DNA of 64,000 nt from a virus. Its lineage: Duplodnaviria; Heunggongvirae; Uroviricota; Caudoviricetes. Of this stretch, positions 22,912 to 52,649 are shown one piece after another (the first letter of the stretch is position 1; every line of letters starts with the position of its first letter). The stretch lies in the IMG/VR virus record IMGVR_UViG_3300029488_000242, one strand, 5' to 3'. The notes under the pieces are model-generated. The model was not told where the DNA came from. It saw only the letters and a program-made list of their open reading frames with translations, and ran no database searches. The position numbers and the translations under genes are program-made.

Positions 22912-23169
22912 TTGAGTAGATATAAGAATGGAAACCCAAAACATGCAAGTCGATTCATATGTTTAAAATGTATGAATGAAAATATGTTAGCCAGTGGAAT
23001 TCAGAGACAGAGACAAAGAGAACGAAAACATATTAAGGATTTGTATTGTTTGAAGTGTGGAGAGGTAACGAAGTGCATCGAAGTAAGATTTTGTGATTCT
23101 TATGAAGAAATTTTTGAGGTTGCAAAGATAAAAAGAGAGAATTATTACATAGACAATTATGAAAGGTAG
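22912..23169 (+). CDS. hypothetical zinc-ribbon protein (TTG start)
   Basis: ORF track; CLKC...CLKCGE. Confidence 0.4.
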   Translation: MSRYKNGNPKHASRFICLKCMNENMLASGIQRQRQRERKHIKDLYCLKCGEVTKCIEVRFCDSYEEIFEVAKIKRENYYIDNYER

Positions 23170-23173
23170 GTTG

Positions 23174-24199
23174 ATGATAATGTGTTATAAAATAGAAGTG
23201 CAGAATAAAAATGCGGAGAAGCTTAATAAAAAATTAGATGAGTTAAATGCACCACAATTTTTAAGAGATTACTTAAATGAGTTGGAAAGCAAAAACGGAG
23301 CGTTAAATTATCTGGTAGCAATTAAAGATTTTTTACAGTGGTTAATTGAAAATAATATCATTAATAAGAAACTAATTTCTGAAATAGAAGTTTCCGATTT
23401 TAATGACCTAAGACCACAAAATATTAGTTCATATCTTAGATATAAGGAAACAAATGGAATGTCACCAACCACAACGGAAACAAGAAAAAACATCATTAAA
23501 AGTTTTATACAGGATATTTATTCATATAGAGAATGTTTGTTGAGAGAACTCTATAACAGTATGAAAGATTTTAATAAACAAATAAAATATAAAGGAATAT
23601 CTTCTAAAAACAACTTAACACAAAAACTTCCAACAGAAAATCAGCTTAATGATATGGAAGAAAAAATAATGTGTAAAAAGGACGAATGTGTAAGGAATAG
23701 GAATATTGCTATTTTTCGTGTGTTAAGAGGAACTGGAATAAGAGAGTCTGAACTTGCTGGCTTGGATTTATCAGATTTGCATTTAGATGAAAATAGTGAA
23801 TATATTGATCTTAATGATATGTCACATATTATGGTTTTACCAAAAGGAAACCAAAGAGAAACTGAAAAAAGACCTGTATATCTTACTGGATCTGCTCTGA
23901 AAGCATTAAGAGAATGGCTAGAGTACAGAAATACATTGAATAATATTGTAGACAAAGAAGCTGTGTTCATAAATAAAAATGGTACACGTACAACAGAGAG
24001 AAATATCAAACAGATATTTGAGAATTATGGAAATGGTATTACTCCACATATGATGAGACATTATTATGCCAGTGTAATGAATCAGAATGGAAATCTTGCA
24101 TTTGTACAGCAACAGCTTGGACATAGTAGTGTGAATACAACAGTTAATAACTATGCGAATGGTGCAGTGGGAATGAAAGATGTGTTAAATAATATGTAA
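23174..24199 (+). CDS. int: tyrosine recombinase / phage integrase (XerC/D family); alternative starts 23159 or 23180
   Basis: C-terminal catalytic motifs HMMRHYYAS...LGHSSVNTTVNNYANG (H-x-x-R ... Y); N-terminal SAM-like core-binding region. Confidence 0.85.
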   Translation: MIMCYKIEVQNKNAEKLNKKLDELNAPQFLRDYLNELESKNGALNYLVAIKDFLQWLIENNIINKKLISEIEVSDFNDLRPQNISSYLRYKETNGMSPTTTETRKNIIKSFIQDIYSYRECLLRELYNSMKDFNKQIKYKGISSKNNLTQKLPTENQLNDMEEKIMCKKDECVRNRNIAIFRVLRGTGIRESELAGLDLSDLHLDENSEYIDLNDMSHIMVLPKGNQRETEKRPVYLTGSALKALREWLEYRNTLNNIVDKEAVFINKNGTRTTERNIKQIFENYGNGITPHMMRHYYASVMNQNGNLAFVQQQLGHSSVNTTVNNYANGAVGMKDVLNNM

Positions 24200-26474: not shown

Positions 26475-28694
26475 ATGATTAATAAAGAGATGATGAGGAT
26501 TATTAATAGTAATCCTGAGATGATGAAAATCATTAATGATTATTCAGATGATGAAAACAAAAAATTAAAAAAATTATGTCACAAGATTTGGCGTGGGAAG
26601 ATTGATATGTATGAATATGATGATTTATATGATGTCGCTATACAATGCTTAATGGAATCTGTGTATAGTTTTAATTCAGAGAAAGCAAATTTTGAAACAT
26701 ATTTAACAGGAAACATTAAAAGAAAATTTGATACATGGATGCGAGATAATAGATTTCGACTAAAAAGAAATAATCTTGTCACGGATGAAAAAGGAAAAAT
26801 AATTTATGACGAAAACGGCACTCCAACGATAATTAAAAATATCTCATTAGATGCACATACGGAAGATGATAATAACTTAATAGAGAAATTAGATTCAGGA
26901 ATAAATATAGAAGATGAATGTAAATTTAATTTTGATTCTGATGAAAAAGTAGAAAAGTTTCTCAATTCATTATCTAAAATACAAAAAAATATCTTGCTTA
27001 TGCGGATGGAGGATTTTCCTTCTGAGAAAATCAAAGAAGAATTAGGTATTTCTAATGGAGAATATAACAGTGCAATGAAAGCAATAAAAATGAACAAAGG
27101 GCTTTCGATGTTCTCAATAAATAAAAATGATGGTGGTTATAATATGGAGGTAAATATGGAAGATAGAATTATTGAAATTAGCGAATCTGAAAATTACAGA
27201 ATGGATAAATATAGTATGTACTCGTTGTTACAAGATAAAAAAAATGGGGATATGAATTGCAACTATATCTTGCAGCGTGAACCGTTTCAATGGAGTAAGG
27301 AAGAAGCAAATAGATATTTCTGTCGTATTCTTAGCAATCTTCCAATTCCTGAAATTATACTTTGTGAACAGAAGAAAAAGGGATTAACTATATCACATTT
27401 GATTGATGGATTGCAGAGACTTTCATATGCAGAAGCTTTTAAGGAGAATCGAATTAAGATTGGTTCGGCAGGAGCGGAAAGACACTTAATTCAGTATAGA
27501 GATTATGTTTTAGATGATAATGGAAATCGTGTGCCTGATGAAGAAGGATTTCCTGAGTATGAAATGAAAGTTTTTGATGTTATTGGAAAATATTATAAAG
27601 ATTTACCAGATGAGTTAAAGAAAAGATTTAATAATTTTAATATTAATGTAACAAAGTTTTTTGATTGTACCGATGAGCAGATTGCCGATCATATTCGTGA
27701 TTACAATAATCATGCAAGTATGAATAAAGAACAGGGTGGATTACTCAACGTATCAGCCGATATTGCTGGACATATTAAAAAGATTTCTCAAAAAAATTCA
27801 TTTTTCAAAAACTGCGGTAAGTTTACAAATAATAATTCAATTAAAGGAAAACTTGAAAGAGTTGTTGTTGAATCAATTATGTTGTTATTCTTTCGTGAAT
27901 CGTGGAGAGCGAGTTTAGATTCGATTTATAAATTCGTCAATGAAAATACAACAGAACAGCAATTTTTAAAATTGAATTCACAGTTTAACAGATTGGAACT
28001 AGCATTAGGTGATAATAACAAAGATTTATCAAAGGAATTATTTACACCTACAACAATGCCAATGTGGATTTCAGTGTTTGATAAATTTACTACATATAAT
28101 ATAGAAGATAGTCGTTTCGTAGATTTCTTAAATGCATATAACATAGAACTCAAAGACAAAGAAATCAATGGTATATCAATGGCTGACTTTAAGGATCAAC
28201 AGACCAAGAAAAAGACAACTATTGTAGGTAAGATTGATTTACTTATAAGGCTTATGAATGATTTTTTACATATTGATACAACTGAAACAGAGAATAATAT
28301 AGAGTCTTCTGATAATAAGGTAACAAATGATAATGAATCTGAACAGAATACGGGTTGTGATGATGAAATATTATCATTTGTTAAAGAAAATGTTGCCGAT
28401 GATATAGAGGATATTGATATAAAGGAATACCAGGATTTCGTGGATGTGTATTTAGATATAGACAACCCTTTATATATACAATGTAAAGCTGCATTAATGG
28501 CATTAACAGCATATGCTTACAGAACTGAAAAGGATGTTGAATTAGCAACTTGGTTGGAAAATTATCAGAAGAATGCTATTGATAAGAACTATAGTTCGTC
28601 ACAGGATGTTAATTACAAGTATATTAAGATGGATTTTGATAATTATATAAATTTCTTAAAAAATTCAAAGAGAGGAGAAATTATAAATGCCTGA
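26475..28694 (+). CDS. fusion protein: N-terminal sigma-70 family module (regions 2 and 4) + central DUF262/ParB-like (GmrS-type) domain + ~330-aa uncharacterised C-terminus
   Basis: region-2-like YDDLYDVAIQCLMESVYSFNSEKANFETYLTGNIKRKFDTWMRDNR; region-4 HTH LSKIQKNILLMRMEDFPSEKIKEELGISNGEYNSAMKAIK; DUF262 motifs ILQREPFQWSKEEANRYF and LIDGLQRLSY. Confidence 0.65.
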   Translation: MINKEMMRIINSNPEMMKIINDYSDDENKKLKKLCHKIWRGKIDMYEYDDLYDVAIQCLMESVYSFNSEKANFETYLTGNIKRKFDTWMRDNRFRLKRNNLVTDEKGKIIYDENGTPTIIKNISLDAHTEDDNNLIEKLDSGINIEDECKFNFDSDEKVEKFLNSLSKIQKNILLMRMEDFPSEKIKEELGISNGEYNSAMKAIKMNKGLSMFSINKNDGGYNMEVNMEDRIIEISESENYRMDKYSMYSLLQDKKNGDMNCNYILQREPFQWSKEEANRYFCRILSNLPIPEIILCEQKKKGLTISHLIDGLQRLSYAEAFKENRIKIGSAGAERHLIQYRDYVLDDNGNRVPDEEGFPEYEMKVFDVIGKYYKDLPDELKKRFNNFNINVTKFFDCTDEQIADHIRDYNNHASMNKEQGGLLNVSADIAGHIKKISQKNSFFKNCGKFTNNNSIKGKLERVVVESIMLLFFRESWRASLDSIYKFVNENTTEQQFLKLNSQFNRLELALGDNNKDLSKELFTPTTMPMWISVFDKFTTYNIEDSRFVDFLNAYNIELKDKEINGISMADFKDQQTKKKTTIVGKIDLLIRLMNDFLHIDTTETENNIESSDNKVTNDNESEQNTGCDDEILSFVKENVADDIEDIDIKEYQDFVDVYLDIDNPLYIQCKAALMALTAYAYRTEKDVELATWLENYQKNAIDKNYSSSQDVNYKYIKMDFDNYINFLKNSKRGEIINA

Positions 28695-28887
28695 TATAAC
28701 AATGTGTACAAGTTCAACTTGCCAGAATAGAGAACAATGCTATAGAGCTATGGCTAAACCAGATAAAATGCAGAGTTATGCCGATTTTACTTCATTATGT
28801 GCTGAAAGAGATTTCAGGTGTCAATGGACTATTACAGAAAAAGAAGTTTTAGACGATAAAGCAGTCAGTCAGCTAATGAGGTGTTAA
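28687..28887 (+). CDS. small Cys-rich protein, translationally coupled to previous gene
   Basis: ATGCCTGA overlap; 7 Cys. Confidence 0.45.
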   Translation: MPDITMCTSSTCQNREQCYRAMAKPDKMQSYADFTSLCAERDFRCQWTITEKEVLDDKAVSQLMRC

Positions 28888-29061
28888 ATGAACGAATTGT
28901 TAAAATTAAGAGAATATATAACAGGATGTATCAAAGTTCTTCATATTTCACTTGTAGGTACAAAAATAAAAGGGAATATTATAGAGCAGCAAACAATTAT
29001 AGGACAGATAATGTCTTATGAAAATATTATTAAGTACATTGATGAAATAATTGGCAACTAA
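28888..29061 (+). CDS. hypothetical small protein
   Basis: TAAATG junction; hand-found. Confidence 0.3.
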   Translation: MNELLKLREYITGCIKVLHISLVGTKIKGNIIEQQTIIGQIMSYENIIKYIDEIIGN

Positions 29062-29243
29062 ATCCGTGTTTCAATAGGAAAAGAGGAGAGAATAATAAAA
29101 TGGATAAAGACGTTAATAAGCGAAATGAACTAAGAAAGCAATTACAGGTATTATCAAAAGAGAGAATTATTGAATTATATATTCACTTGTTCATGAATTC
29201 TACTAATGATAAGGATGAAGCTGATTGGGAAGATATTAAGTAG

Positions 29244-29837
29244 AGAACAGATTGCACAAGTTTGGCGACCTAACAATCTGCTCTACAGAGAATAAAATAT
29301 AGGATAAACTATATTTGTTCTATTGTAACAAATCTATTTGGTTAATTCAAGCCAGTTTATCCTATAACAATTAGTCTTTTGACTACGGGCTATTTTGAGT
29401 CCGAATAGTGAGGATTATATCACTCACTGAAAAGTATGTAATTTATATGTAATTTGAAGTTTTGGAAGTATATGAAATTACATACTAACAAAATTTTGCA
29501 GATATAGTGGCAAACTACACTTACGTTTTAAAAGTATATAAATTTATTTCTCTTTAAGAGAATATATAAATGAAATTAAAATCAATTCTATTGCGGTAGA
29601 TTTTACTGCCGAATCGTGAGTGCAATGCAACTCATGAAAATCTATGTAATAATTTTGAGGTTTAGATGTGTTTAAAATTCATAGATATAAAACAATGGTG
29701 AGCTTCTAAACGGTCTGTATTCGTTTTATATGTATATAAAATTACATAGGTATAAAACTTTGAATATGTTTAAGTTCAATGTCCCTTGGTTTTAGAGATA
29801 TTTATAATTACAAAAAATATAAAGGAGATCACAAATT
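29244..29837 (+). other. ~600-bp structured non-coding region upstream of tnpB-like gene: nested inverted repeats (ataggataaact...agtttatcctat), tandem tatgtaattt repeats, long hairpin gtatgtaattt...aaattacatac, and two copies (~29383-29452 and ~29586-29662) of a ~70-nt element with two stem-loops showing compensatory base changes
   Basis: read directly; the copies share ATTTT..CCGAAT.GTGAG-loop-CTCA.TGAAAA..TATGTAAT while their stem sequences covary. Confidence 0.55.
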
Positions 29838-31226
29838 ATGGGAAACGATAGAATGACAATTTGTAGAAAAATTAAATTATTTCCAGTAGGAGATAAGGAA
29901 GAAATCAATAGAGTATATGACTTTATTAGAAATGGTCAGTATGCTCAATACCAAGCTTGTAACTTACTTATGGGACAGCTTATGAGTGAATATTACAAAT
30001 ACAATCGTGATATTAAGAATGAAGAATTTAAGGCAAGACAGAAAGAAATAATGACAAACTCTAATATCATATTAAAAGATATTGATTTTGCAACTGGTGT
30101 AGATACCCCATCAGCCGTTACGCAGAAAGTCAAGCAGGATTTTAGCACAGCTTTGAAGAATGGATTGGCAAAGGGTGAAAGAACAGTAACAAATTATAAG
30201 AGAACTAATCCACTTATTACAAGAGGTAGAAACTTAACTTTTTATCATGAGTATGAAACATATCAAGATTTCTTGGATAAAATTAATGATTGTGATTTGA
30301 CGGTATATGTTAAGTGGGTTAATAAAATTGTATTCAAGGTTGTGTTTGGTAATCCGCATAGGTCATTAGAATTAAGATCTGTTATACAGAATATCTTAGA
30401 AGAGAATTATAAAGTACAAGGAAGTAGTATTGAAATTGATGGTAAGTCAATCATTTTGAATCTTTCAATATCTATTCCAAAACAACTTAGAGAGTTAGAT
30501 GAGAATACAGTAGTCGGTGTTGATTTGGGTATTGCTGTTCCTGCGATGTGTGCTTTGAATAATAATTTTTATGAGAGATTGGCGATTGGAAATGCAGATG
30601 ACTTCCTAAGAATAAGAACTAAAATGCAAGCTCAAAGAAGAAGATTACAGAAGTCATTGAGAAATACTTCTGGCGGTCATGGTAGAGCAAAGAAACTAAA
30701 AGCATTAGAAAGATTACAGAAAACAGAGGCACATTTTGTTGAAACATATTGTCATATGATAAGTAAAAGAGTTGTTGATTTTGCTTTAAAACATAATGCT
30801 AAATACATAAATATTGAAAATTTAACAGGATATGATACAAGCGATTTTATCCTGAGAAATTGGAGTTATTATAAACTTCAAGATTATATTACATATAAAG
30901 CAGCTAAGTACGGAATTGAAGTAAGAAAAATCAATCCTTGTTATACATCACAGATTTGCAGTGTATGTGGTAATTGGGAGTTTGGTCAGAGAAAGTCACA
31001 GTCAGTATTTGAATGTGCAAATGAGAATTGTGATAGTCATAAGAAATATGAGAAAATTGGATTCAATGCTGACTTTAATGCTGCCAGAAATATTGCAATG
31101 TCAACTCTTTGGATGGAAAGTGGACAAGTTACTGAAAAGAGTAAGCAGGAAGCAAGAGAATATTATGGTATCTCTAAAAAGTATGAACAGAATAAGAATG
31201 ATTTGGAGAATAATAAAGTAGCCTAA
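29838..31226 (+). CDS. tnpB: TnpB / Cas12f-like RuvC-domain RNA-guided nuclease homolog (IS200/IS605 OrfB family), catalytic residues apparently intact
   Basis: RuvC-I VGVDLGIAVPA, RuvC-II YINIENLTG, zinc finger CSVCG...C..C, RuvC-III NADFNAARNIA; 462 aa. Confidence 0.8.
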   Translation: MGNDRMTICRKIKLFPVGDKEEINRVYDFIRNGQYAQYQACNLLMGQLMSEYYKYNRDIKNEEFKARQKEIMTNSNIILKDIDFATGVDTPSAVTQKVKQDFSTALKNGLAKGERTVTNYKRTNPLITRGRNLTFYHEYETYQDFLDKINDCDLTVYVKWVNKIVFKVVFGNPHRSLELRSVIQNILEENYKVQGSSIEIDGKSIILNLSISIPKQLRELDENTVVGVDLGIAVPAMCALNNNFYERLAIGNADDFLRIRTKMQAQRRRLQKSLRNTSGGHGRAKKLKALERLQKTEAHFVETYCHMISKRVVDFALKHNAKYINIENLTGYDTSDFILRNWSYYKLQDYITYKAAKYGIEVRKINPCYTSQICSVCGNWEFGQRKSQSVFECANENCDSHKKYEKIGFNADFNAARNIAMSTLWMESGQVTEKSKQEAREYYGISKKYEQNKNDLENNKVA

Positions 31227-31580
31227 GTGCTACTTAATCAATCGAAAGATTGCAGGTGATTTTGCACCTGAATGGTGAGGTTGTTTAATTTAACATAGAT
31301 ACAAAACACGGTTAAGACAACATTTTACTCAGTAAAATGATTATTCAATATAGATGTTACAGAAATGTTGAGATTATCAAGTTAATGGAAGAAAAATATA
31401 ATACGGAAAGGAGAATAGTTAAATGTCAGTATTTTTTATATTAGTTTTAATAGGATTAATAATTTTATGGTTTCTACTGTCACCTTTATTTGTAAAAATT
31501 GGTGAGTTTGTTATCAACATTATAAATAAGGTGTTTTCGACAGATGAAATAAATAATAATGAAGAAAAGGAGACAAAAAG

Positions 31581-32441
31581 ATGAAGAAATCAATTGGAGG
31601 AGTAGTAACAGTGGTAGTTATTATTGTGGCGGTAATATTATTATTAATATCAACGGTGCGTGTACCAGCAGGGTATATTGCTGTACAGTACAGTATGTCG
31701 GGTGGCGTAAAGGGCGATATTCTTACACAAGGATGGCATTTAAAGTCACCAACTGTAAAAACGACACTTTACTCGGTGAGTCTTGAACAGAGTTATTTAA
31801 CGTCTAGTAAGGACGGAGACTCTAAAGACGATGACAGCTTTTCAGCAAGTTCATCTGAAGGTAAGGCTATGCAGATAGATCTTACTTTTACATATCAGTA
31901 TAGTCCTGATAAGGTAGCTGATTTATTTACAAGATTCAGAGGTCAGTCTGGTAAGGAAGTAAGAGATAGTTTCATCAAACCAAACATTATTAGCTGGACT
32001 AAGGAAGTTGTTGCAAATTATAAGGTATCAGACATTCTTGGTTCTGAGAGAGCAAACGTTAATACAGCATTAACTGATTATCTTAATAAGAAGTTTGAAC
32101 CTTATGGAATTGCAATTAGCAATGTATCATTAATTAACATTTCTGTGGATGAGAAGACACAAGAAGCTATTAATGCAAAGATTACAGCACAGCAGGCAGC
32201 CGAAACTCAGGAAATTAACAATCAGACAGCTATTAATAAGGCAAAGGCAGATGCAGAAGTAACTAAGGCAGAAGCAAAGGCTAAAGCTGATGCACAGCTC
32301 ATAGAAGCTCAGGCACAGGCAGAAGCTAATAGTAAATTAAGTTCTTCAATCACTGATGAACTTATAAGAATGAAGGAAGCAGAAGCAAGAGTTGAACATG
32401 GCTGGGTCGAAATTCAGGGTGTCAATACTGTAGTTAAGTAA
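31581..32441 (+). CDS. SPFH/band-7 (prohibitin/HflC-like) membrane protein with Ala/Lys-rich coiled-coil tail
   Basis: N-terminal TM then PAGYIAVQYSMSGGVKGDILTQGWHLKSP...MQIDLTFTYQY; RBS aaaggagaca. Confidence 0.75.
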   Translation: MKKSIGGVVTVVVIIVAVILLLISTVRVPAGYIAVQYSMSGGVKGDILTQGWHLKSPTVKTTLYSVSLEQSYLTSSKDGDSKDDDSFSASSSEGKAMQIDLTFTYQYSPDKVADLFTRFRGQSGKEVRDSFIKPNIISWTKEVVANYKVSDILGSERANVNTALTDYLNKKFEPYGIAISNVSLINISVDEKTQEAINAKITAQQAAETQEINNQTAINKAKADAEVTKAEAKAKADAQLIEAQAQAEANSKLSSSITDELIRMKEAEARVEHGWVEIQGVNTVVK

Positions 32442-32484: not shown

Positions 32485-32557
32485 ATAGCTGTGGTGAAGT
32501 GGTCAACACAACAGATTTTGATTCTGTCATTCGTGGGTTCAAATCCCACCAGCCTAG
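32485..32557 (+). tRNA. tRNA-Gln(TTG)-like sequence; D-arm to 3' end canonical, 5' acceptor strand does not pair (probable partial/pseudo-tRNA)
   Basis: anticodon stem acaga/tctgt with loop ttTTGat; T-arm gtggg-ttcaaat-cccac; aligns with Bacillus tRNA-Gln from position ~10; 5' strand atagctg cannot pair with cagccta. Confidence 0.45.
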
Positions 32558-40115: not shown

Positions 40116-41039
40116 ATGTCATGTGGACACATTGCATTAGAGAAAGCAGGATTTAATGTTGGTAAATATTTTGCATCAGAGATTAAGGACGTGGCAATTA
40201 AGGTAACAAGAGACAACTATCCTGAGACAATTCACATTGGAGATGTGAACAAGATTACATATAAAGATGGTGTATTACATACAGAAGTCGGAGACTTTGA
40301 AACAGATATTGATATTGTAATGTTTGGTAGTCCTTGTCAGAGTTTTTCAAGAGCAATGATTAAAGAGAGAAAGATTGGTCTTGAAGATCCAGAACGTTCA
40401 GGTCTGTTTTATGAGTGCAATAGAGTATTGAAAGAAGTAAATCCAAAGTATTTCCTTATGGAAAATGTAGTGATGAAACCTGAAGATGAAGCCGTTATTA
40501 GTGAAATGATGGGAGTAAAACCTATCAGAATCAATTCTTCTCTTGTAGTAGGACAGCTTAGAGATAGATATTATTGGACTAATATTCCAGGAGTAACAGT
40601 TCCAGAAGATAAAGGAGTTACTTTACAAAGTGTACTCAATGATGGATATGTACCAAACGAGAAAGCAAAATGCCTTTGCAAGAATGATTCTCACGGATAT
40701 TACAACGGCTGTTTTTGGACACCAATTAAGAGGTTTCACAGATTCTATTATAAGTCGTTTGGAACAATGGTGTTCCCATCGAAAGAGTATTTTGATAACT
40801 GTTTAGAGGTTACAAAGAGAATATTAGATGGAAGAAAATCTTCTGCAAAAATCTATGATGATTACAATGGTCATGATTTTGATGAAGCAAGATATTTATG
40901 GAAAGAAGAGAGAGCAAGATTGCAAGGAGTTCCAGAAGAATATGTAGAAAATATGACTGAAAAAGATGCGGCAGATGTTCTTGGTGATGGTTGGACTGTA
41001 CCTGTAATCGCACACATTTTCAGTTTTATGAAATTTTAA
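40116..41039 (+). CDS. DNA (cytosine-5)-methyltransferase; motif I continues in-frame upstream of the only ATG with no start codon available (N-terminus unresolved)
   Basis: GSPCQSFS (motif IV), ENV (motif VI), motif I ...LNVLSLCDG|MSCGHIALEKAGF split by the ATG; in-frame TAG at 40065-40067. Confidence 0.75.
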   Translation: MSCGHIALEKAGFNVGKYFASEIKDVAIKVTRDNYPETIHIGDVNKITYKDGVLHTEVGDFETDIDIVMFGSPCQSFSRAMIKERKIGLEDPERSGLFYECNRVLKEVNPKYFLMENVVMKPEDEAVISEMMGVKPIRINSSLVVGQLRDRYYWTNIPGVTVPEDKGVTLQSVLNDGYVPNEKAKCLCKNDSHGYYNGCFWTPIKRFHRFYYKSFGTMVFPSKEYFDNCLEVTKRILDGRKSSAKIYDDYNGHDFDEARYLWKEERARLQGVPEEYVENMTEKDAADVLGDGWTVPVIAHIFSFMKF

Positions 41040-42662: not shown

Positions 42663-43499
42663 ATGATTAAAATTAATGGCGATATTGTAACAATCAATAA
42701 GTTCCCAGATGGAACACCAAGAGTAAATATTGATATAAACAACATTGAGGAAGACTCTTATGATGGCTCTCCTTGTATTTGGATTGAATGGATTTATGAG
42801 AGTAACGATGAGATATTTTATCTGATGTTAGTAAAGAAACATCTTGAAAGATTTTTTACTAATGTGGATTATTATTTGTCTCTTCCATATATTCCTAATG
42901 CACGAATGGATAGAGTAAAAAATGATGATGAAGTATTCACATTGAAGTATTTTTGCGATTTTATCAATTGGTTAGGATTTTCATCAGTTTATGTTTTAGA
43001 TGCTCATAGCGATGTTTCTACTGCATTACTCAATAATTGTGTAAAAGAAAATCCAAAAGAGTATGTTGATAAAGCTATTTCAAAGATTGGTATGAGAAAT
43101 CTTGTACTTTATTTTCCAGATGCAGGTGCAGCTAAGAGATATTCAGATTTATTCCCTGAGTTACCGTATTGTTATGGTGAAAAGAAGAGAGATTGGAAGA
43201 CTGGTAAAATCCTTGGATTAGACATTAGAACAAATGGTATTGATTTGAAGGATAAAGCTGTGTTAATGATTGATGATATTATCGCATATGGCGGTTCACT
43301 TTATTATAGTGCAGAAGAATTAAAGAAACATGGTGTAACTGAGATTTATGCGTATGCAACACATACAGAGAATTCAATTCTTGATAAAGAAAAAGGAACG
43401 TTGATCAAGTCTTTGGAGAATAATACAGTGAACAGATTATTTACGACAAACAGTTTATTTAATGGTAGTCATGAAAAAATTACAGTTATGGAGGTTTAA
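42663..43499 (+). CDS. ribose-phosphate pyrophosphokinase (PRPP synthetase)-like protein; could instead be an ADPR-pyrophosphate synthetase (Adps) type
   Basis: VLDAHSD, FPDAGAAKR, PRPP-binding loop VLMIDDIIAYGGSL. Confidence 0.7.
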   Translation: MIKINGDIVTINKFPDGTPRVNIDINNIEEDSYDGSPCIWIEWIYESNDEIFYLMLVKKHLERFFTNVDYYLSLPYIPNARMDRVKNDDEVFTLKYFCDFINWLGFSSVYVLDAHSDVSTALLNNCVKENPKEYVDKAISKIGMRNLVLYFPDAGAAKRYSDLFPELPYCYGEKKRDWKTGKILGLDIRTNGIDLKDKAVLMIDDIIAYGGSLYYSAEELKKHGVTEIYAYATHTENSILDKEKGTLIKSLENNTVNRLFTTNSLFNGSHEKITVMEV

Positions 43500-43503
43500 A
43501 ATT

Positions 43504-44964
43504 ATGGATAACACAATGGCTTTATTATTATCAGATACTTATAAACAGTGTCATGATCGCATGTACCCAAATGGTTTGACTAAATTGGTGTCGTATTGGG
43601 TGCCTAGAAAATCAATGTTAGAGAATCAGAATGAAATGGTTTTCTTTGGATTACAGGCATTTATCAAAGAATATTTAATGGGATATTTTCAGAAAAATTT
43701 CTTCGATTTATCGGAAGATGAGATGCTAACTCTTTATACAGATTCGATGGACGTACAGATTGGTAGAGACAACTATGATTTAGATAAAATTGTAGAGCTT
43801 CACAGATTAAGATATTTACCACTTGAGATTAGAGCATTACCAGAAGGTACACTTGTTCCTATGGGTGTTCCTTGTATTGAGATTACAAATACGGATGATA
43901 AATTTGCTTGGCTTGTTCAGTGGATCGAATGTATTCTTCAGGTAGAATTATGGAAGCCTTGTTGTCATGCAACTATCGGTCATATGTATCGTGAGATTGC
44001 AGATTATTGGTATAACAAGACAACAGACGGGTTGCCTGGAAATATGGCTTGTGCAGATTTTGGCATGAGAGGAATGTCTTGTATGGATGAAGCTACAAGA
44101 TGTTCAGCATCATGGTTGCTTTCATTTAATAAGACATCTACAATTCCAGCAATTAATTATATTGATAGATATTACAATGCCGATTGTAAGAATAATGGTA
44201 TTGGAATCGGTGCTGTCTCAACTGAGCATTCTGTAATGGGGGCTAATTTCTCAATTGATGGAGATGAGATTACGTTCGTTAAGAGACTTTTAACAGAGTT
44301 ATATCCAAATACATCATTTAGTATGGTTTCAGATACTTATGATTATTGGAATATGGTAAATAATATTCTTCCACAGTGTAAAGAAGAGATTATGAATCAT
44401 AATGGAAAGCTCTTGGTTCGTCCTGATAGTGGTGATATTGTAGAGATTTCAGTTAAGACAGTTGAAAGGTTATGGGAGATTTTTGGTGGTTCTGTAAATG
44501 GTAAAGGTTATAAGGTATTAAATCCGCATATCGGTATTATTTATGGTGATGGCTGCACACTTTCTAATGTAGAAACTATTTGGAAAGAATTAGAAAAGCG
44601 TGGTTTCGCAGCTAATAATATTGCTTATGGTGTAGGAGCTTTTTGCTTCACTGCAATCGTTGAAAATGGCAAGATGATTGTTGTTACAAGAGATACTTTT
44701 GGTATTGCAATGAAAGCTACATATGGAGTAATTGATGGTAAGAAGTTAATGATTTTCAAAGATCCTAAGACAGATACGAGTCACTTAAAGAAATCTCATA
44801 AAGGATGTTGTAGAGTATACGATGATAACGGTGAATTAAAGTGTCAAGATCAGTTACTTGAAATGAGTGATAACAGTTTACTTACTACCGTATTTAAAGA
44901 TGGAGAGTTAGTAAGAGAAGATACATTTGCGGATATCAGAAACAGAATGTACGGAGGTAAGTAA
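43504..44964 (+). CDS. nadV: nicotinamide phosphoribosyltransferase (NadV/NAMPT family)
   Basis: N-terminal LLLSDTYKQCH signature, ~486 aa; RBS ggagg. Confidence 0.8.
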   Translation: MDNTMALLLSDTYKQCHDRMYPNGLTKLVSYWVPRKSMLENQNEMVFFGLQAFIKEYLMGYFQKNFFDLSEDEMLTLYTDSMDVQIGRDNYDLDKIVELHRLRYLPLEIRALPEGTLVPMGVPCIEITNTDDKFAWLVQWIECILQVELWKPCCHATIGHMYREIADYWYNKTTDGLPGNMACADFGMRGMSCMDEATRCSASWLLSFNKTSTIPAINYIDRYYNADCKNNGIGIGAVSTEHSVMGANFSIDGDEITFVKRLLTELYPNTSFSMVSDTYDYWNMVNNILPQCKEEIMNHNGKLLVRPDSGDIVEISVKTVERLWEIFGGSVNGKGYKVLNPHIGIIYGDGCTLSNVETIWKELEKRGFAANNIAYGVGAFCFTAIVENGKMIVVTRDTFGIAMKATYGVIDGKKLMIFKDPKTDTSHLKKSHKGCCRVYDDNGELKCQDQLLEMSDNSLLTTVFKDGELVREDTFADIRNRMYGGK

Positions 44965-46181: not shown

Positions 46182-47381
46182 ATGGCAGAAGACTTAACTA
46201 ATTTACAATTTGGAAAATTAACAGTCATCAAACGTGGAGACAACGATAAAAGCGGACATGTGAGATGGTGGTGTAAATGTGACTGTGGCAACCCTAAATT
46301 GATTTTAGTTGCCGCAGGACATTTAAAATCAGGACATACTCAATCATGTGGATGTATAAGAAGAGATAATATTAAACCACAAAAGAATTTAGAAGGAAAA
46401 AGATTTGGGAAATTAATTGTAAAAGAATTTCTTGGTATAAAAAATCATAGATCATTATGGAGTTGTGATTGTGATTGTGGTAAGAAAATTAACGCTTTAT
46501 CATCGTCTTTAACTTCTGGAAAACTTAAGTCATGTGGATGTTTATCTTCTGTAGCTGAGTTCGAATTAAGCCAGTTCTTGACAGATGAACAAATTATATT
46601 TGATACGCAATATAAGTTTGATGATTGTAAATATAAAAGAAGATTGCCATTCGATTTTACAATTTTTCATCCACAAAATAAGAAACTCTTATTTTTAATT
46701 GAACTACATGGAGAACAGCATTATTTTCCGTTTACATTTAATAGTGAGTCTGATATGCAAAAGAAGGAAAATTTTTTGCATAGAAAACATTTGGATAAAT
46801 TAAAAGAAGATTATTGTAGTGAAAATAATATTCCATTGTTAATTATTAGATATACAAATTTTCAAACAAAAGAAAAAATTGTAAAAGGGTTTTATGAAAA
46901 GCTCTTGCAAAAGAATATTACATTTGATGATTATATATTTTCATCAAAACAAATAAAGGATGATTTACAAGTAAAGCATAAACGTGTCTATAAAAGAAAA
47001 GTAGTCCAAATAGATATACCCAACAAGAATATTATAAGAGAATATAATAGTATGGAAGAGGCATATAAGATAACTGGAATATCATCTGGACAGATTTCGG
47101 ATTGTTGTAAGGGTAATTGTAAAACAGCAGGTGGATATGCTTGGGCATATAATAACGGAAACGTTAATATTGAAGAAGTAATTAAACGTGCAACAATTCC
47201 AAATAGAACAAATGCAGTTGTGATTTTCCAAAAAGATAAAAATGGAAATATTATAAAAGAGTGGCAAAGTATAACAGAAGCAGCACATTCTTTGGGAGTA
47301 AGTCATCAAGGTATTCAAGCGTGTTGTTCAGGAAAGCAGAAAACTTGTAAAGGATTTGTTTGGAATTATAAGAAAGATTGA
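46182..47381 (+). CDS. homing-endonuclease-like protein: two Zn-ribbon (W-C-x-C-x-CG...SCGC) repeats + Vsr/DUF559-like PD-(D/E)xK core + two C-terminal NUMOD/IENR-type DNA-binding repeats
   Basis: WWCKCDCG...SCGC x2; PFDFTIFHP...IELHGEQHY; EAYKITGISSGQISDCCKGNCKTAGGYAWAY and EAAHSLGVSHQGIQACCSGKQKTCKGFVWNY. Confidence 0.55.
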   Translation: MAEDLTNLQFGKLTVIKRGDNDKSGHVRWWCKCDCGNPKLILVAAGHLKSGHTQSCGCIRRDNIKPQKNLEGKRFGKLIVKEFLGIKNHRSLWSCDCDCGKKINALSSSLTSGKLKSCGCLSSVAEFELSQFLTDEQIIFDTQYKFDDCKYKRRLPFDFTIFHPQNKKLLFLIELHGEQHYFPFTFNSESDMQKKENFLHRKHLDKLKEDYCSENNIPLLIIRYTNFQTKEKIVKGFYEKLLQKNITFDDYIFSSKQIKDDLQVKHKRVYKRKVVQIDIPNKNIIREYNSMEEAYKITGISSGQISDCCKGNCKTAGGYAWAYNNGNVNIEEVIKRATIPNRTNAVVIFQKDKNGNIIKEWQSITEAAHSLGVSHQGIQACCSGKQKTCKGFVWNYKKD

Positions 47382-49353: not shown

Positions 49354-50229
49354 ATGTTAGAGATTAACAAAATATACAATGAAGATTGCCTTGAAGGTAT
49401 GAAAAAGATTGATGATAAATCGGTCGATTTCATCTTCACAGATCCACCTTATAATACGACTAATAATTCTTGGGAATGTGAAATGCCGTTAAATGATTAT
49501 GTCGAGTTATCAGGACAATATTTCTATGAAACAGATCTATTTAATTTGGCTCAAGTAACAAATAGTAGTCTTGAGTATACAAGAGATTGGTTTTATGAGA
49601 ACAAAAAAGATGGTTTATGGACTCATTACAATCGAATTATCAAAGATAATGGTTGCATTGCATTATGGGCGCAATCACCATTTGATAAGAGGCTCGCTTG
49701 TAGTAATGAAAAGCTATATCGCTATGAATGGATTATCGAAAAGACCAAAGCAACTGGTCATCTAAATGCAAAGAAAATGCCTATGAAGGCACACGAAAAT
49801 GTCTTGATTTTCTATAAGAAACTCCCTACATATAATCCACAAATGACAGAAGGACATACGCCTGTTCATTCTTATACAAAGCATACGACAGATGGTAACT
49901 GTTATGGTGCTACAAAGACTGGTATTTCAGGTGGTGGCAGTACACAAAGATATCCAAGAGATGTTCTGCAGTTCAAGTGGGATACTCAGAAAAGTAGCTT
50001 ACATCAGTGCCAAAAGCCTGTTGAAGCGTGTGAGTATTTTATTAAGACATATACCAATCAAGGAGATTTAGTTCTTGATTCATGTGCAGGAAGTTGTACA
50101 ACTGCAATTGCAGCTTTAAATACAGGTAGAAATTACATATGTTTTGAGAAAGATAAGGATATTTTTGAGGTTGGAAGTAAGAGAGTAGCTGAATATGCTA
50201 ATCAAGATTTGTTGATGAGTGCTACATAA
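49354..50229 (+). CDS. beta-class DNA amino-methyltransferase (N6-adenine or N4-cytosine)
   Basis: DPPY (motif IV) near N-terminus, motif I DSCAGSCTT near C-terminus. Confidence 0.75.
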   Translation: MLEINKIYNEDCLEGMKKIDDKSVDFIFTDPPYNTTNNSWECEMPLNDYVELSGQYFYETDLFNLAQVTNSSLEYTRDWFYENKKDGLWTHYNRIIKDNGCIALWAQSPFDKRLACSNEKLYRYEWIIEKTKATGHLNAKKMPMKAHENVLIFYKKLPTYNPQMTEGHTPVHSYTKHTTDGNCYGATKTGISGGGSTQRYPRDVLQFKWDTQKSSLHQCQKPVEACEYFIKTYTNQGDLVLDSCAGSCTTAIAALNTGRNYICFEKDKDIFEVGSKRVAEYANQDLLMSAT

Positions 50230-51812: not shown

Positions 51813-52649
51813 TTGAAAAATACATATATTAAATCGCCTCTAAATTATATCGGAGGCAAGTATAAGTTACTACCAATCATTGTACCAATGTTCCCAGATA
51901 AGATAAATACTTTTGTGGATTTATTTGGTGGAGGTTTTAATGTTGGTATTAATGTAAATGCTGAACATATTATCTATAATGATATATGCAAGCAGGTAGT
52001 TGGTTTTCTAAGATATTTACAAGGTTCAAATATTGAAGAAGTGTTACAGAAGATTGATTCATATATTGATAAGTATGAATTAACAAAAGAAAATAAAGAA
52101 GGATATTTACTGTTTAGAGAAGAATATAACACAGGTATCAAAGATCCAATTAAATTCTATACGCTTTTATGTTATGCGTTCAATAATCAAATCAGATTCA
52201 ATTCCAAAGGTGAATATAACATGCCTTTTGGCAAAGATAGATCAAGTTTTAACCCCACTCTTAGACAAAAATTTATAGATTTTCATAAGCGACTGAATGA
52301 AATAGATTGTAGTTTCTTAAATATTCCATTTGAGAGATTTGATTTTTCTGATTTTATGGAAGGTGATTTTGTTTATGCAGATCCACCATATTTTAATTCT
52401 GTTGCTACATACAATGAAAACGGTGGTTGGACAGAAGAAATGGAGAATAAATTATTAGAGACTCTTGATACTTTAAATGATAAAGGCGTTAAGTTTGCAT
52501 TGAGTAATAATCTCAAATATGACAATCCATTACTTGATAAATGGAAAGATAAATACATAGTTCATTATTTAAAGCATGATTATAGCAACTGCAATTATCA
52601 GAAAAAGGACAGGAGTGCCGATTGTGAGGTATTAATTACAAATTATTAA
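51813..52649 (+). CDS. dam: T4-Dam-like N6-adenine DNA methyltransferase (TTG start)
   Basis: NYIGGKYKLL, FVDLFGGGFNVG, DFVYADPPY; layout and several blocks align with phage T4 Dam. Confidence 0.8.
   Translation: MKNTYIKSPLNYIGGKYKLLPIIVPMFPDKINTFVDLFGGGFNVGINVNAEHIIYNDICKQVVGFLRYLQGSNIEEVLQKIDSYIDKYELTKENKEGYLLFREEYNTGIKDPIKFYTLLCYAFNNQIRFNSKGEYNMPFGKDRSSFNPTLRQKFIDFHKRLNEIDCSFLNIPFERFDFSDFMEGDFVYADPPYFNSVATYNENGGWTEEMENKLLETLDTLNDKGVKFALSNNLKYDNPLLDKWKDKYIVHYLKHDYSNCNYQKKDRSADCEVLITNY

Follow-up and report, generated by a model that had tools for sequence, protein, structure and literature searches.

A probable compact type V-F CRISPR-Cas12f locus with scaffold and mini-array modules in a Herelleviridae-like gut phage

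The cas12f gene and its surroundings

The window analysed in this work, a stretch of 64 kb, derives from a ~160-kb Herelleviridae-like gut phage; a 685-aa protein encoded near the locus shares ~60% identity with proteins from Bacillus Herelleviridae phages. The locus comprises the cas12f gene (29838..31226, plus strand, 462 aa), defined by the ORF list and by profile and structure-database matches, two predicted scaffold and mini-array modules in the non-coding DNA 5′ of the gene, and the remnant of a third module downstream, all three modules being predicted on the cas12f strand. The related contigs are IMG/VR viral contigs, and the position of the locus is the same in 22 of these phage contigs. 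Megablast found no counterpart of the locus among GenBank phages, and no relative was found in GTDB genomes with the single Cas12f protein as the query.

The 462-aa ORF announced in the original prediction is present at these positions, intact, single-copy within the window and 95-98% identical to its relatives. Its product had been described as a phage-borne RNA-guided nuclease of the TnpB/Cas12f lineage with a complete RuvC triad, and the alignments agree with this: residues D229, E327 and D412 are intact, fall within the motifs already pointed out (GVD229LG, INIE327NL and NAD412FNAARNIA) and align with CnCas12f1 and RhCas12f, so that the nuclease can be predicted to be catalytically intact, judging by its residues. 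In the zinc finger, the first cysteine pair was found as claimed (C374xxC377), while the second turned out to be Cx4C and not CxxC (C393x4C398). The protein passes the NCBIfam model guided_TnpB (169 bits), matches Pfam Cas12f1-like_TNB, and is recognised by PADLOC both as Cas12u3 (372 bits) and as Cas12f (370 bits). Its best PDB matches are 8hr5 (CnCas12f1, E = 4e-88) and 9nzp (RhCas12f, E = 9e-82), with identical catalytic motifs, and the residues by which RhCas12f reads the PAM, D77/R117/R119, are conserved here as D89/R129/R131. On sequence grounds, the protein is a member of the V-U3 / C-rich-PAM clade of Cas12f. The Cas12p 'hacker', which represents a different phage-borne family, was matched with E = 4e-4 only and was set aside.

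A domain search of the 86 ORFs in the 64-kb window detected no Cas9, Csn2, Cas1 or Cas2 domain, and no Y1 transposase (Y1_Tnp) domain either, in accordance with the earlier remark that no TnpA lies nearby. The stretch 29244-29837 is indeed non-coding, as it holds no ORF of at least 40 aa. Rfam identified no known RNA in the non-coding region, either when the whole window was searched or, permissively, in 28600-32000, and on this result a group I intron or IStron was discarded as an explanation. The part lying 5′ of the first module (29244..29368, plus strand), distinguished by its conservation and an inverted repeat, is conserved 94-99% in L001-L022. The inverted repeat is perfect and carries a nested hairpin, as had been noticed, yet it measures 13 bp instead of 12 (29298-29310 / 29354-29366). 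A weak sigma-70-like site (CTAACA-17-TAAAAT) occurs at 29270-29298; the region shows no excess of promoter-like sites over shuffled sequence, and no terminator-like site was found on its plus strand.

Scaffold modules and CRISPR mini-arrays

The two hairpin elements that had been singled out as covarying ~70-nt copies are predicted tracrRNA-like scaffolds, each composed of stem 1, stem 2 and an anti-repeat and each located directly 5′ of its own CRISPR mini-array. Both copies are confirmed by a covariance model derived from related modules and searched across the window and the related loci, which gave 117.9 bits (E = 6e-19) for 29369-29494 and 100 bits (E = 1e-15) for 29577-29693. The model produced 69 matches in 25 loci, every one of them on the cas12f strand.

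Scaffold A (29369..29458, plus strand), delimited by the covariance model, covariation and fold, starts with hairpin 0 (29373-29384), followed by stem 1 (29386-29391 / 29398-29403) with the loop ATTTTG (29392-29397), stem 2 (29408-29415 / 29419-29427), the anti-repeat (29433-29444) and the leader end ATTTGAA (29452-29458). In the minimum-free-energy fold (z = -3.8), both stems and the helix between anti-repeat and repeat are recovered, and the layout agrees with the published RhCas12f1 tracrRNA. The hairpin previously described around the tatgtaattt repeats corresponds to the pairing of 29433-29444 with 29475-29486, which is a perfect helix of 12 bp and not of 11. Scaffold B (29577..29659, plus strand), located by the covariance model, repeats this order with hairpin 0 at 29583-29593, stem 1 at 29594-29599 / 29606-29611 with the loop ATTTTA, stem 2 at 29616-29635, the anti-repeat at 29641-29650 and the leader end TTTTGAG at 29653-29659. 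Its anti-repeat (CTATGTAAT) and the loop ATTTTA fit the repeat variant of its own array (ATT-CATAG, TAAAAC) and not that of array 1.

The module C remnant (31236..31307, plus strand; covariance model, 32.9 bits) retains hairpin 0 (31240-31251), stem 1 (31253-31258 / 31265-31270) and the start of stem 2 (31274-31279), which a deletion has joined to the final ~22 nt of a repeat (31286-31307), and contains no spacer. The CAGGTG/CACCTG hairpin reported after the stop codon (31253-31270) is therefore present as stem 1 of a truncated third copy. Relatives hold at this position, right after the stop codon, an intact scaffold and an array of 0-1 spacers; in the relatives with a 417-aa protein, the scaffold reaches into the final codons of the gene and is followed by one repeat-like unit without a second repeat. 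Since relatives keep a 3′ module, the 5′ arrangement that had seemed unusual loses its peculiarity, and the two 5′ modules can be regarded as additional paralogous copies.

The region beside cas12f is organised in CRISPR mini-arrays with 36-nt repeats and spacers of about 30 nt. The repeats, located by a Hamming scan, follow a 66-nt period and are found nowhere else in the window; these direct repeats had been overlooked in the original prediction. Both arrays lie on the plus strand and were delimited by the repeat scan and strain comparison. Mini-array 1 (29459..29560) consists of a 36-nt repeat (29459-29494), a spacer (29495-29524) and a degenerate terminal repeat (29525-29560), and the 3′ end of its repeat, CAAAAT (29489-29494), pairs with the loop of stem 1 as a pseudoknot. 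Mini-array 2 (29660..29824) opens with a repeat of 34 nt holding two 1-nt deletions (29660-29693), followed by a spacer (29694-29722), a second repeat (29723-29758), another spacer (29759-29788) and a degenerate terminal repeat (29789-29824) that overlaps the ribosome-binding site of cas12f.

The covariation claimed for the hairpin elements is genuine, lying far above the slid-partner and shuffle controls. When 19 modules are aligned with MAFFT in an unbiased way, 85.8% of the cells pair, compared with 30-47% when the partners are slid, and both sides change in 21 of the 32 pairs; the observed values were reached by none of 500 shuffles. For 53 distinct modules from related phages the paired fraction amounts to 88.4%, and four helices covary, the pseudoknot among them even though it is absent from the model. 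The anti-repeat:repeat helix is 87-88% paired, and of its 12 pairs 8 to 9 have changed on both sides. The transcribed strand is fixed by G-U pairs, of which one position in stem 2 alone has 22.

Considering the window together with 22 near-identical phage contigs (23 loci), 34 distinct spacers were parsed automatically and 43 with manual additions. Their lengths range from 28 to 31 nt, and they differ between near-identical phages in a particular way, trailer-end spacers being common to strains and scaffold-proximal spacers being unique. This polarised turnover between strains shows that new spacers enter at the scaffold-proximal repeat.

Spacer targets and the PAM

True protospacers came from a metagenome scan and one IMG/VR scan. 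The spacer at 29495-29524 has matches beside 5′-CCA/CCG in 20 gut-metagenome contigs and 8 genome contigs, with positions 1-26 identical to the target and mismatches at 27 and 29, while the spacer at 29759-29788 matches IMG/VR contigs L071 and L072 in 30/30 positions next to a 5′-CCA flank. No target was found for the spacer at 29694-29722, for which the exact IMG/VR scan returned only the array of a near-identical contig. Of four spacers scanned in this way, three gave only the arrays themselves. The 43 spacers concatenated and compared with GenBank phages and PLSDB yielded chance-level matches only, 29 of the 43 are left with no match, and inside the 64-kb window itself the spacers are unmatched.

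All 13 distinct protospacers carry CC at positions -3/-2 (CCA in ten cases, besides CCG, CCT and CCC), which at a background CC frequency of 0.04 corresponds to P ~6e-19, and no common 3′ motif is found beside them. The spacers have their PAM end towards the leader. The published PAM of RhCas12f1 is 5′-CCD with a preference for CCA, and the 5′-CCN of the phage agrees with it.

The identified targets comprise small plasmids of the Rep_3/Mob type from gut Clostridia and a tailed phage of 40-46 kb. Plasmid target contigs encode Rep3_N/Rep3_C and Mob_Pre, and are matched mostly in one conserved, terminator-ended non-coding element that resembles RF02442, scoring 45.7 bits against this Rfam family (gathering score 42) and 35-37 bits in other contigs. 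The same element is also present in complete plasmids of Waltera intestinalis, Mediterraneibacter gnavus, C. perfringens, Butyricicoccus and Ihubacter, as well as in Lachnospiraceae MAGs. In the phage target (L071/L072), the matches adjoin or fall within a tape-measure-like gene, and BLAST of L071 against GenBank phages gave nothing. The proposed use of the nuclease against competing mobile elements is thus supported by the spacer matches, which lie in foreign plasmids and in a foreign phage beside a 5′-CCN PAM.

Interpretation of the locus and comparison with known systems

The phage locus is very probably a compact type V-F CRISPR-Cas12f system, arranged in three modules of a scaffold and a mini-array and directed against plasmids and a rival phage. 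Among the options originally offered, the guide/scaffold RNA pair and the mini-array proved to be right together, while the IS ends of a TnpB-only element did not hold. It is extremely improbable that the locus is an IS200/IS605-type TnpB element devoid of TnpA, whose hairpins would be transposon-end or omegaRNA fragments and whose nuclease would home to its own flank. Such a reading could draw on the protein passing guided_TnpB, on module C lying exactly at the omegaRNA position, and on the 417-aa relatives, with their scaffold over the last codons of the gene and a single repeat-like unit. However, the repeats are separated by spacers of 28-31 nt which vary from one near-identical phage to the next and match foreign plasmids and phage instead of flanks, the 86 ORFs contain no Y1 transposase domain, the gene is single-copy in the window, and its position is fixed in 22 contigs.

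A non-cleaving regulator similar to TldR or dCas12f-sigmaE is also very unlikely. dCas12f-sigmaE systems do exist, and a possible partner would be the sigma-like 739-aa protein encoded 1.1 kb upstream (ORF 26475-28694), which is syntenic with cas12f even in distant relatives and gives a weak Sigma70_r2 match of 23 bits; this score is nevertheless under the Pfam threshold (cut-off 24), and PDB and PHROG searches of the protein were empty. Moreover, the three RuvC residues, the zinc finger and the C-terminus are intact, whereas dCas12f proteins are without part of RuvC, and the spacers find their matches not in the 64-kb window but in other mobile elements, beside a CCN PAM of the nuclease type. 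A further possibility, that the family is functional and the locus in this particular genome is a largely non-functional, decaying relic, is unlikely as well. Decay could be read from the truncation of module C, the leader end ATTTGAA instead of ATTTGAG in module A, the two 1-nt deletions in the 34-nt first repeat of array 2, and the presence of only three spacers, one of them without a known target. Against this stand the intact ORF at 95-98% identity to relatives, scaffolds A and B reaching 100-118 bits, the 30/30 fit of spacer 29759-29788 to the phage target with the correct PAM, and the fit of spacer 29495-29524 over positions 1-26.

If the locus is a Cas12f system of this kind, each module would be transcribed, with the 5′ part of its RNA forming stem 1, stem 2 and the anti-repeat. 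The anti-repeat pairs with the 3′ half of the adjacent repeat, and the loop of stem 1 with the last 5-6 nt of the repeat as a pseudoknot, a structure that covariation shows together with its pairings. The scaffold-proximal spacer could in this way become part of a natural single-guide RNA in cis, while spacers further along the array would use the scaffold in trans. Guide-loaded Cas12f would recognise 5′-CCN and then the spacer match, and would probably cut the target DNA, since the RuvC site is intact and relatives have been characterised. The integrase for new spacers would presumably be supplied in trans. As the targets are plasmids and a phage, the system would thus serve the conflict of mobile elements inside a shared host.

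In the effector family, the RuvC motifs and the PAM-contact residues, the system resembles the type V-F1 C-rich-PAM clade (CnCas12f1, RhCas12f1, Cb3/Cs1/Bc2Cas12f1), with which it also shares the 5′-CCN PAM and the preference for CCA. Its scaffolds follow the tracrRNAs of RhCas12f1 and Cs1Cas12f1 in the succession ACGG..ATTT.G..CCGAA..TGAGG..CACTC and in stem 1, stem 2 and the anti-repeat; in those systems, too, the loop of stem 1 (ATTTA) is complementary to the end of the repeat (TAAAT). V-U clades are not known to carry adaptation genes, and here too no cas1/cas2/cas4 lies beside the effector. Unlike its bacterial relatives, for which one tracrRNA and one array are listed per system, the system is phage-borne and has two to five scaffold and mini-array modules per gene, each with a co-varying repeat. 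The phage scaffold of ~90 nt runs straight into the first repeat, without the 'GGGTTAACC...stem 3' segment of the bacterial tracrRNAs, and the phage repeats are 36 nt long, end in AAAAC and follow the leader end ATTTGAG, while the bacterial repeats listed are 29-32 nt long and end in AAAT or GAAT. With IS200/IS605 TnpB-omegaRNA the locus has in common the TnpB protein fold and domain order, ancestral to the phage Cas12f, a guide located 3′ of the scaffold, and a pseudoknotted scaffold at the 3′ end of the gene (module C); it differs in the absence of a transposon and TnpA, in guides that are CRISPR spacers exchanged over time, and in the CCN PAM.

Among phages, the CRISPR system of ICP1 is reportedly directed at the PLE element (Seed et al. 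2013). Phage-borne location, compact arrays, no cas1/cas2 nearby and competing mobile elements as targets are likewise features of the CRISPR systems of huge phages (PMC7162821). The present locus departs from the huge-phage and ICP1 systems in its 462-aa Cas12f effector with cis-linked tracr modules, and many of its identified targets are small cryptic plasmids, hit at one non-coding element, in contrast to the other phages or host genes targeted by phage systems. A large lytic-type gut phage spends CRISPR memory on small cryptic plasmids of Clostridia, aiming at the single non-coding element conserved among them, which implies that such plasmids are of importance to the phage. The locus presents a miniature Cas12f in nature with readable guide architecture, PAM and targets, which is rare for V-U3-type systems, otherwise known mostly as genome-editing tools. 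The arrangement of one scaffold per mini-array, with co-evolving pseudoknot and anti-repeat, could provide many candidate orthogonal scaffold/repeat pairs for one compact nuclease, including a candidate short scaffold (~90 nt) for a 462-aa CCN-PAM enzyme.

Regarding spacer gain, Group 1 type II-A arrays are characterised by the leader end ATTTGAG, a 36-nt repeat with GTTT at its 5′ and AAAC at its 3′ end, and leader-proximal insertion (PMC5382924), and the phage arrays carry all of these DNA hallmarks, with the junction ATTTGAG/GTTT...AAAC and spacers of about 30 nt. Across 48 distinct modules, ATTTGAG is exact in 20 and present as a one-base variant in most others, and repeats start with GTTT in 37 and end with AAAC in 29. 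Differences from type II-A are seen in the absence of Cas9, Csn2, Cas1 and Cas2 from the window, in the repeat interior serving the Cas12f tracr, and in the 5′-CCN PAM, as opposed to the 3′ PAM of type II-A. Spacers selected by Cas9 have their PAM end on the side opposite to the leader-proximal one of the phage arrays. A hijack of the full Cas9-dependent type II-A pathway in its simple form was considered, and is weakened by the leader-proximal PAM end and the absence of a 3′ motif.

It is possible, although rather doubtful, that the arrays are chimeras by which the phage hijacks the type II-A Cas1-Cas2(-Csn2) integrase of its Clostridial host to load Cas12f arrays. If so, this hijack would represent a clade-specific re-tooling that keeps an adaptation-less phage system adaptive, and the choice of 5′-CCN would have to be made by Cas12f itself or through selection, and not by Cas9. 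To the question of how adaptation-less phage CRISPR systems gain spacers, the leader-repeat signature of type II-A kind offers an answer that is concrete and testable. In such a chimera, the repeat interior and the cis scaffold would serve Cas12f, while the 'address' in the array DNA would copy that of Group 1 type II-A.

The cas12f gene and its CRISPR arrays

The locus around the cas12f ORF (29838-31226, + strand, 462 aa) very probably encodes a CRISPR-Cas12f system of type V-F, in which the modular layout of the guides is unusual. In profile searches the protein matches Pfam Cas12f1-like_TNB and OrfB_IS605 and NCBIfam guided_TnpB (169 bits), its top matches being the PADLOC models Cas12u3 (372 bits) and Cas12f (370 bits). 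The best solved structure in the PDB is 8hr5 (CnCas12f1, 497 aa, E = 4e-88), followed by RhCas12f (9nzp, E = 9e-82) and then by MG119-28, AsCas12f and Un1Cas12f. In alignments, the catalytic motifs GVD229LG, INIE327NL and NAD412FNAARN are identical in kind to those of Cas12f structures, and with these motifs intact the nuclease looks active, as had been expected. The RuvC-I, -II and -III motifs are as the original prediction described them; in the zinc finger, the first CxxC pair stands (C374xxC377), while the second is C393x4C398 and not CxxC. Among the solved structures, ISDra2 TnpB reaches only E ~7e-3. The original observation is confirmed and its interpretation partly right, with an active-looking phage-borne nuclease, functional RNAs and a use against competing elements; the IS/TnpB framing is wrong, the guides being array spacers that match foreign plasmids and a foreign phage.

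The non-coding region upstream of the gene (29244-29837, 594 bp) contains no ORF of at least 40 aa, and all the structures reported from it are there: an inverted repeat, hairpins and two copies of a ~70-nt element. It also holds a feature not seen in the original prediction, arrays of a 36-nt repeat at a 66-nt period (for example GTTTTATATGTATATAAAATTACATAGGTATAAAAC at 29723-29758), a repeat not found elsewhere in the 64 kb window. On the + strand, array 1 consists of a repeat (29459-29494), a spacer (29495-29524) and a degenerate repeat (29525-29560), and array 2 of two units (repeat 29660-29693 with spacer 29694-29722, repeat 29723-29758 with spacer 29759-29788), followed by a degenerate repeat (29789-29824) in overlap with the cas12f ribosome-binding site. 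Each array forms a module with the hairpin element preceding it (A and B upstream of the gene, C with array 3 downstream). The sole downstream module trace in the window is a deletion remnant of module C (31236-31307, +), whose stem 1 is the CAGGTG/CACCTG hairpin already noticed after the stop codon.

A protein 95-97% identical to the window's Cas12f is encoded on 22 IMG/VR contigs, whose upstream regions vary in length in steps of ~66 bp and which, when parsed, carry two tandem arrays upstream of cas12f and a third downstream. Together with the window, these loci contain 43 distinct spacers of 28-31 nt. The trailer-end spacer of each array is common to strains (array 1 ATCTGGCAACAG..., array 2 ACTTGCGTTG...) and the spacers adjoining the hairpin element are strain-specific, which is the signature of polarised acquisition. 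In one related contig (L015, 4723-4818) the same spacer, GTAAAAGGAAAGTGGTCTGATGCTGATCTT, stands twice in tandem in array 2, and it recurs in array 3 of another (L022), which indicates repeat-mediated duplication and exchange between modules. The window's own locus is somewhat worn, with module C truncated, one junction mutated and one repeat shortened. The gene looks functional, as do two of the scaffolds and no fewer than two spacers.

Scaffold RNAs and modular architecture

One hairpin element lies directly 5' of every array. In distant relatives on other IMG/VR contigs (Cas12f of 517-557 aa, 50-61% identical), two to five mini-arrays surround the gene, each with its own repeat variant and the same module ahead of it. 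Nineteen modules were aligned by MAFFT, in an alignment not fitted to any structure, and four helices were tested: stem 1, stem 2, the anti-repeat:repeat helix, and a pseudoknot of the stem-1 loop with the last six repeat nucleotides. Pairing cells amounted to 85.8%, against 30-47% with partners slid, both sides changed at 21 of the 32 pairs, and none of 500 shuffles reached the observed values. With a covariance model built without the pseudoknot, 69 modules were recovered from 25 loci, every one of them on the same strand as cas12f. Across 53 distinct module sequences the pseudoknot was 80% paired, with compensatory changes, for example at one position (G-C 34, A-U 11) and at another (U-A 42, C-G 6); by eye, loop and repeat end pair as ATTTTG/CAAAAT, ATTTTA/TAAAAC, ATTTCG/CGAAAC, ATTTCA/TGAAAC and ACTTTG/CAAAGC. 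G-U pairs are frequent, numbering 22 at a single stem-2 position, and mark the + strand as the RNA strand. The minimum-free-energy fold of module A (z = -3.8) recovers both stems as well as a long helix of anti-repeat and repeat.

For RhCas12f1 and Cs1Cas12f1, tracrRNAs have been published that start ACGGTTG-ATTTAG-CAACCG-AAGT-CTGAGGG...CCACTCGG-AAAG, with a loop ATTTA complementary to the repeat end TAAAT. Since the phage hairpin elements share this start, and since the loop of those tracrRNAs complements the repeat end, the elements are tracrRNA-like scaffolds. The covariation first seen between the two copies is real and extends further, each scaffold co-varying with its own repeat. Because the scaffold adjoins the first repeat, an RNA that ran from the scaffold through the repeat into the first spacer would act as a natural single guide. 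Upstream of scaffold A, a 6-bp hairpin is nested in a perfect inverted repeat of 13 bp (29298-29366, +). Close relatives conserve this structure at 94-99%, whereas modules B and C are not preceded by it; possible roles are those of an operator, of a 5' stabiliser or of a segment of a longer tracr A.

Earlier work had already reported V-F and V-U systems that are carried by phages and lack adaptation genes (PMC7162821), so this kind of system is known. The present loci have several modules per gene with one scaffold per mini-array, and inside a module the stem-1 loop diversifies together with the anti-repeat and the repeat; no description of such a layout was found in the literature searched, the main virus-encoded CRISPR survey lying outside that search. 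Relatives of 417 aa (65% identical over 91% of the query) occur on mouse-gut phage contigs of 42-45 kb (L034, 11247-11400; L035; L036). Their single scaffold overlaps the last codons of the gene and is followed by one repeat-like unit (TTATTGAG|GTTTTTAATTG...), with no detectable second repeat after it, and by tRNA-like sequences. The arrangement may represent either an array that has decayed or a lone, fixed guide resembling an omegaRNA.

PAM and targets of the spacers

The spacers had no match elsewhere in the 64-kb window and no significant match in GenBank phages and PLSDB. An exact scan of metagenome contigs found the core of the window's array-1 spacer in 20 human-gut contigs, none of them arrays. 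BLAST of all spacers against these and two IMG/VR contigs found via spacer 29759-29788 gave 13 distinct protospacers for 14 matching spacers (two being variants of one), with all three arrays represented. CC occupies positions -3/-2 in all 13 (CCA ten times; CCG, CCT and CCC once each), the chance of which is ~6e-19 at a CC background frequency of 0.04, and no common 3' motif was seen at them. The PAM is the same as that of RhCas12f1, 5'-CCD with CCA preferred, and the PAM-reading residues of RhCas12f (D77, R117, R119) have conserved equivalents in D89, R129 and R131 of the phage protein.

Five spacers fall inside a single conserved element, non-coding and ~330 nt long, which has a promoter and ends in an intrinsic terminator; it is located beside Rep_3 genes of small Clostridial plasmids (contigs L041-L060, e.g. 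L047 858-1074, -, and L057 8948-9177, -). Among the products encoded by the target contigs are Rep_3 initiators, Mob_Pre relaxases and SSB. The element is also found in small plasmids with complete sequences from Waltera intestinalis (5.6 kb) and from Mediterraneibacter gnavus (6.9 kb), in plasmids of C. perfringens, Butyricicoccus and Ihubacter, and in Lachnospiraceae MAGs. It matches Rfam RF02442 ('Streptococcus sRNA SpF66') with 45.7 bits in one contig (gathering score 42) and 35-37 bits in others; given its place beside Clostridial Rep_3 genes, RF02442 may not be an sRNA specific to Streptococcus but an RNA of plasmids, associated with the origin or controlling replication. The second target is a 40-46 kb IMG/VR phage contig, matched by three spacers around a tape-measure-like gene. 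One of the three is the window's spacer 29759-29788, which matches at 30/30 positions. The window's array-1 spacer and its targets agree at every one of positions 1-26, and no target was found for spacer 29694-29722. The choice of targets is unusual: a large share are cryptic plasmids of small size, struck at the one non-coding element that they conserve. The plasmid and phage matches with their 5'-CC flank support the suggested use against competing mobile elements.

Loading of the arrays and genomic surroundings

Pfam searches of the 86 window ORFs found no Cas1, Cas2, Cas4, Csn2 or Cas9, nor a Y1 transposase, in agreement with the TnpA reported missing nearby. The seven bases 5' of the first repeat read ATTTGAG in 20 of 48 distinct modules and a one-base variant in most others, and the repeat starts with GTTT in 37 and ends with AAAC in 29 of the 48; repeats are 36 nt and spacers ~30 nt long. 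Leader end, repeat length and repeat ends are the exact hallmarks of Group-1 type II-A arrays, namely ATTTGAG, 36 nt, GTTT and AAAC (PMC5382924). In such arrays, the last 10 leader nt and one repeat are enough for acquisition. Bacterial Cas12f1 relatives with CCN-type PAMs differ, their repeats being 29-32 nt long and ending in AAAT or GAAT. In the predicted hairpin of anti-repeat and repeat, the leader-repeat junction falls at the apex, so its conservation is more easily explained at the DNA level. The array sequences thereby suggest that the phage arrays may be loaded by an integrase of type II-A kind, acting in trans. Cross-type hijacking of type II-A adaptation is a tentative idea, which we consider rather unlikely, and in its simple form, as a hijack of the Cas9-coupled pathway, it is weakened by the leader-proximal PAM end of the spacers and by the lack of a visible 3' PAM.

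The window has a G+C content of 31% and nearly all genes on one strand, and it encodes a 685-aa protein that shares ~60% identity with proteins from Herelleviridae phages of Bacillus with genomes of ~155-165 kb. Relatives of the locus occur on IMG/VR contigs of up to 186 kb, and more distant Cas12f relatives (417 aa, 533 aa) also lie among terminase, scaffold and capsid genes. A 739-aa ORF (26475-28694, +), 1.1 kb upstream of the locus, has a weak N-terminal Sigma70_r2 match (23 bits, below the cut-off of 24) and no relative in PDB or PHROG. It is syntenic with cas12f in close relatives, at 40-50% identity in most against 95-97% for Cas12f, and in distant relatives (L025-L028) at 27-36%. It could be part of the phage backbone or, by analogy with dCas12f-sigmaE, may be linked to the RNA-guided system.

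NAD+ reconstitution is a phage counter-defence, and the window's NAD+ salvage set resembles it, comprising a phosphoribosyltransferase-like ORF (42663-43496, +), a NAMPT/NAPRTase-family ORF (43462-44961, +), an NAD synthase and an isochorismatase-domain ORF. At 40116-41036, 49354-50226, 51813-52646 and other places, the window ORFs give five Pfam DNA-methyltransferase matches (one C5, two N6_N4, two D12-class), and two ORFs match the PADLOC DarG model; this part of the genome looks like an anti-defence island. The window also carries a tyrosine-recombinase gene of the phage integrase family (23159-24199), though the genome is otherwise of lytic, Herelleviridae-like type, an HNH/NUMOD homing-endonuclease gene (46182-47378) and, a short distance downstream of the CRISPR locus, a tRNA-Gln(ttg) (32485-32557).
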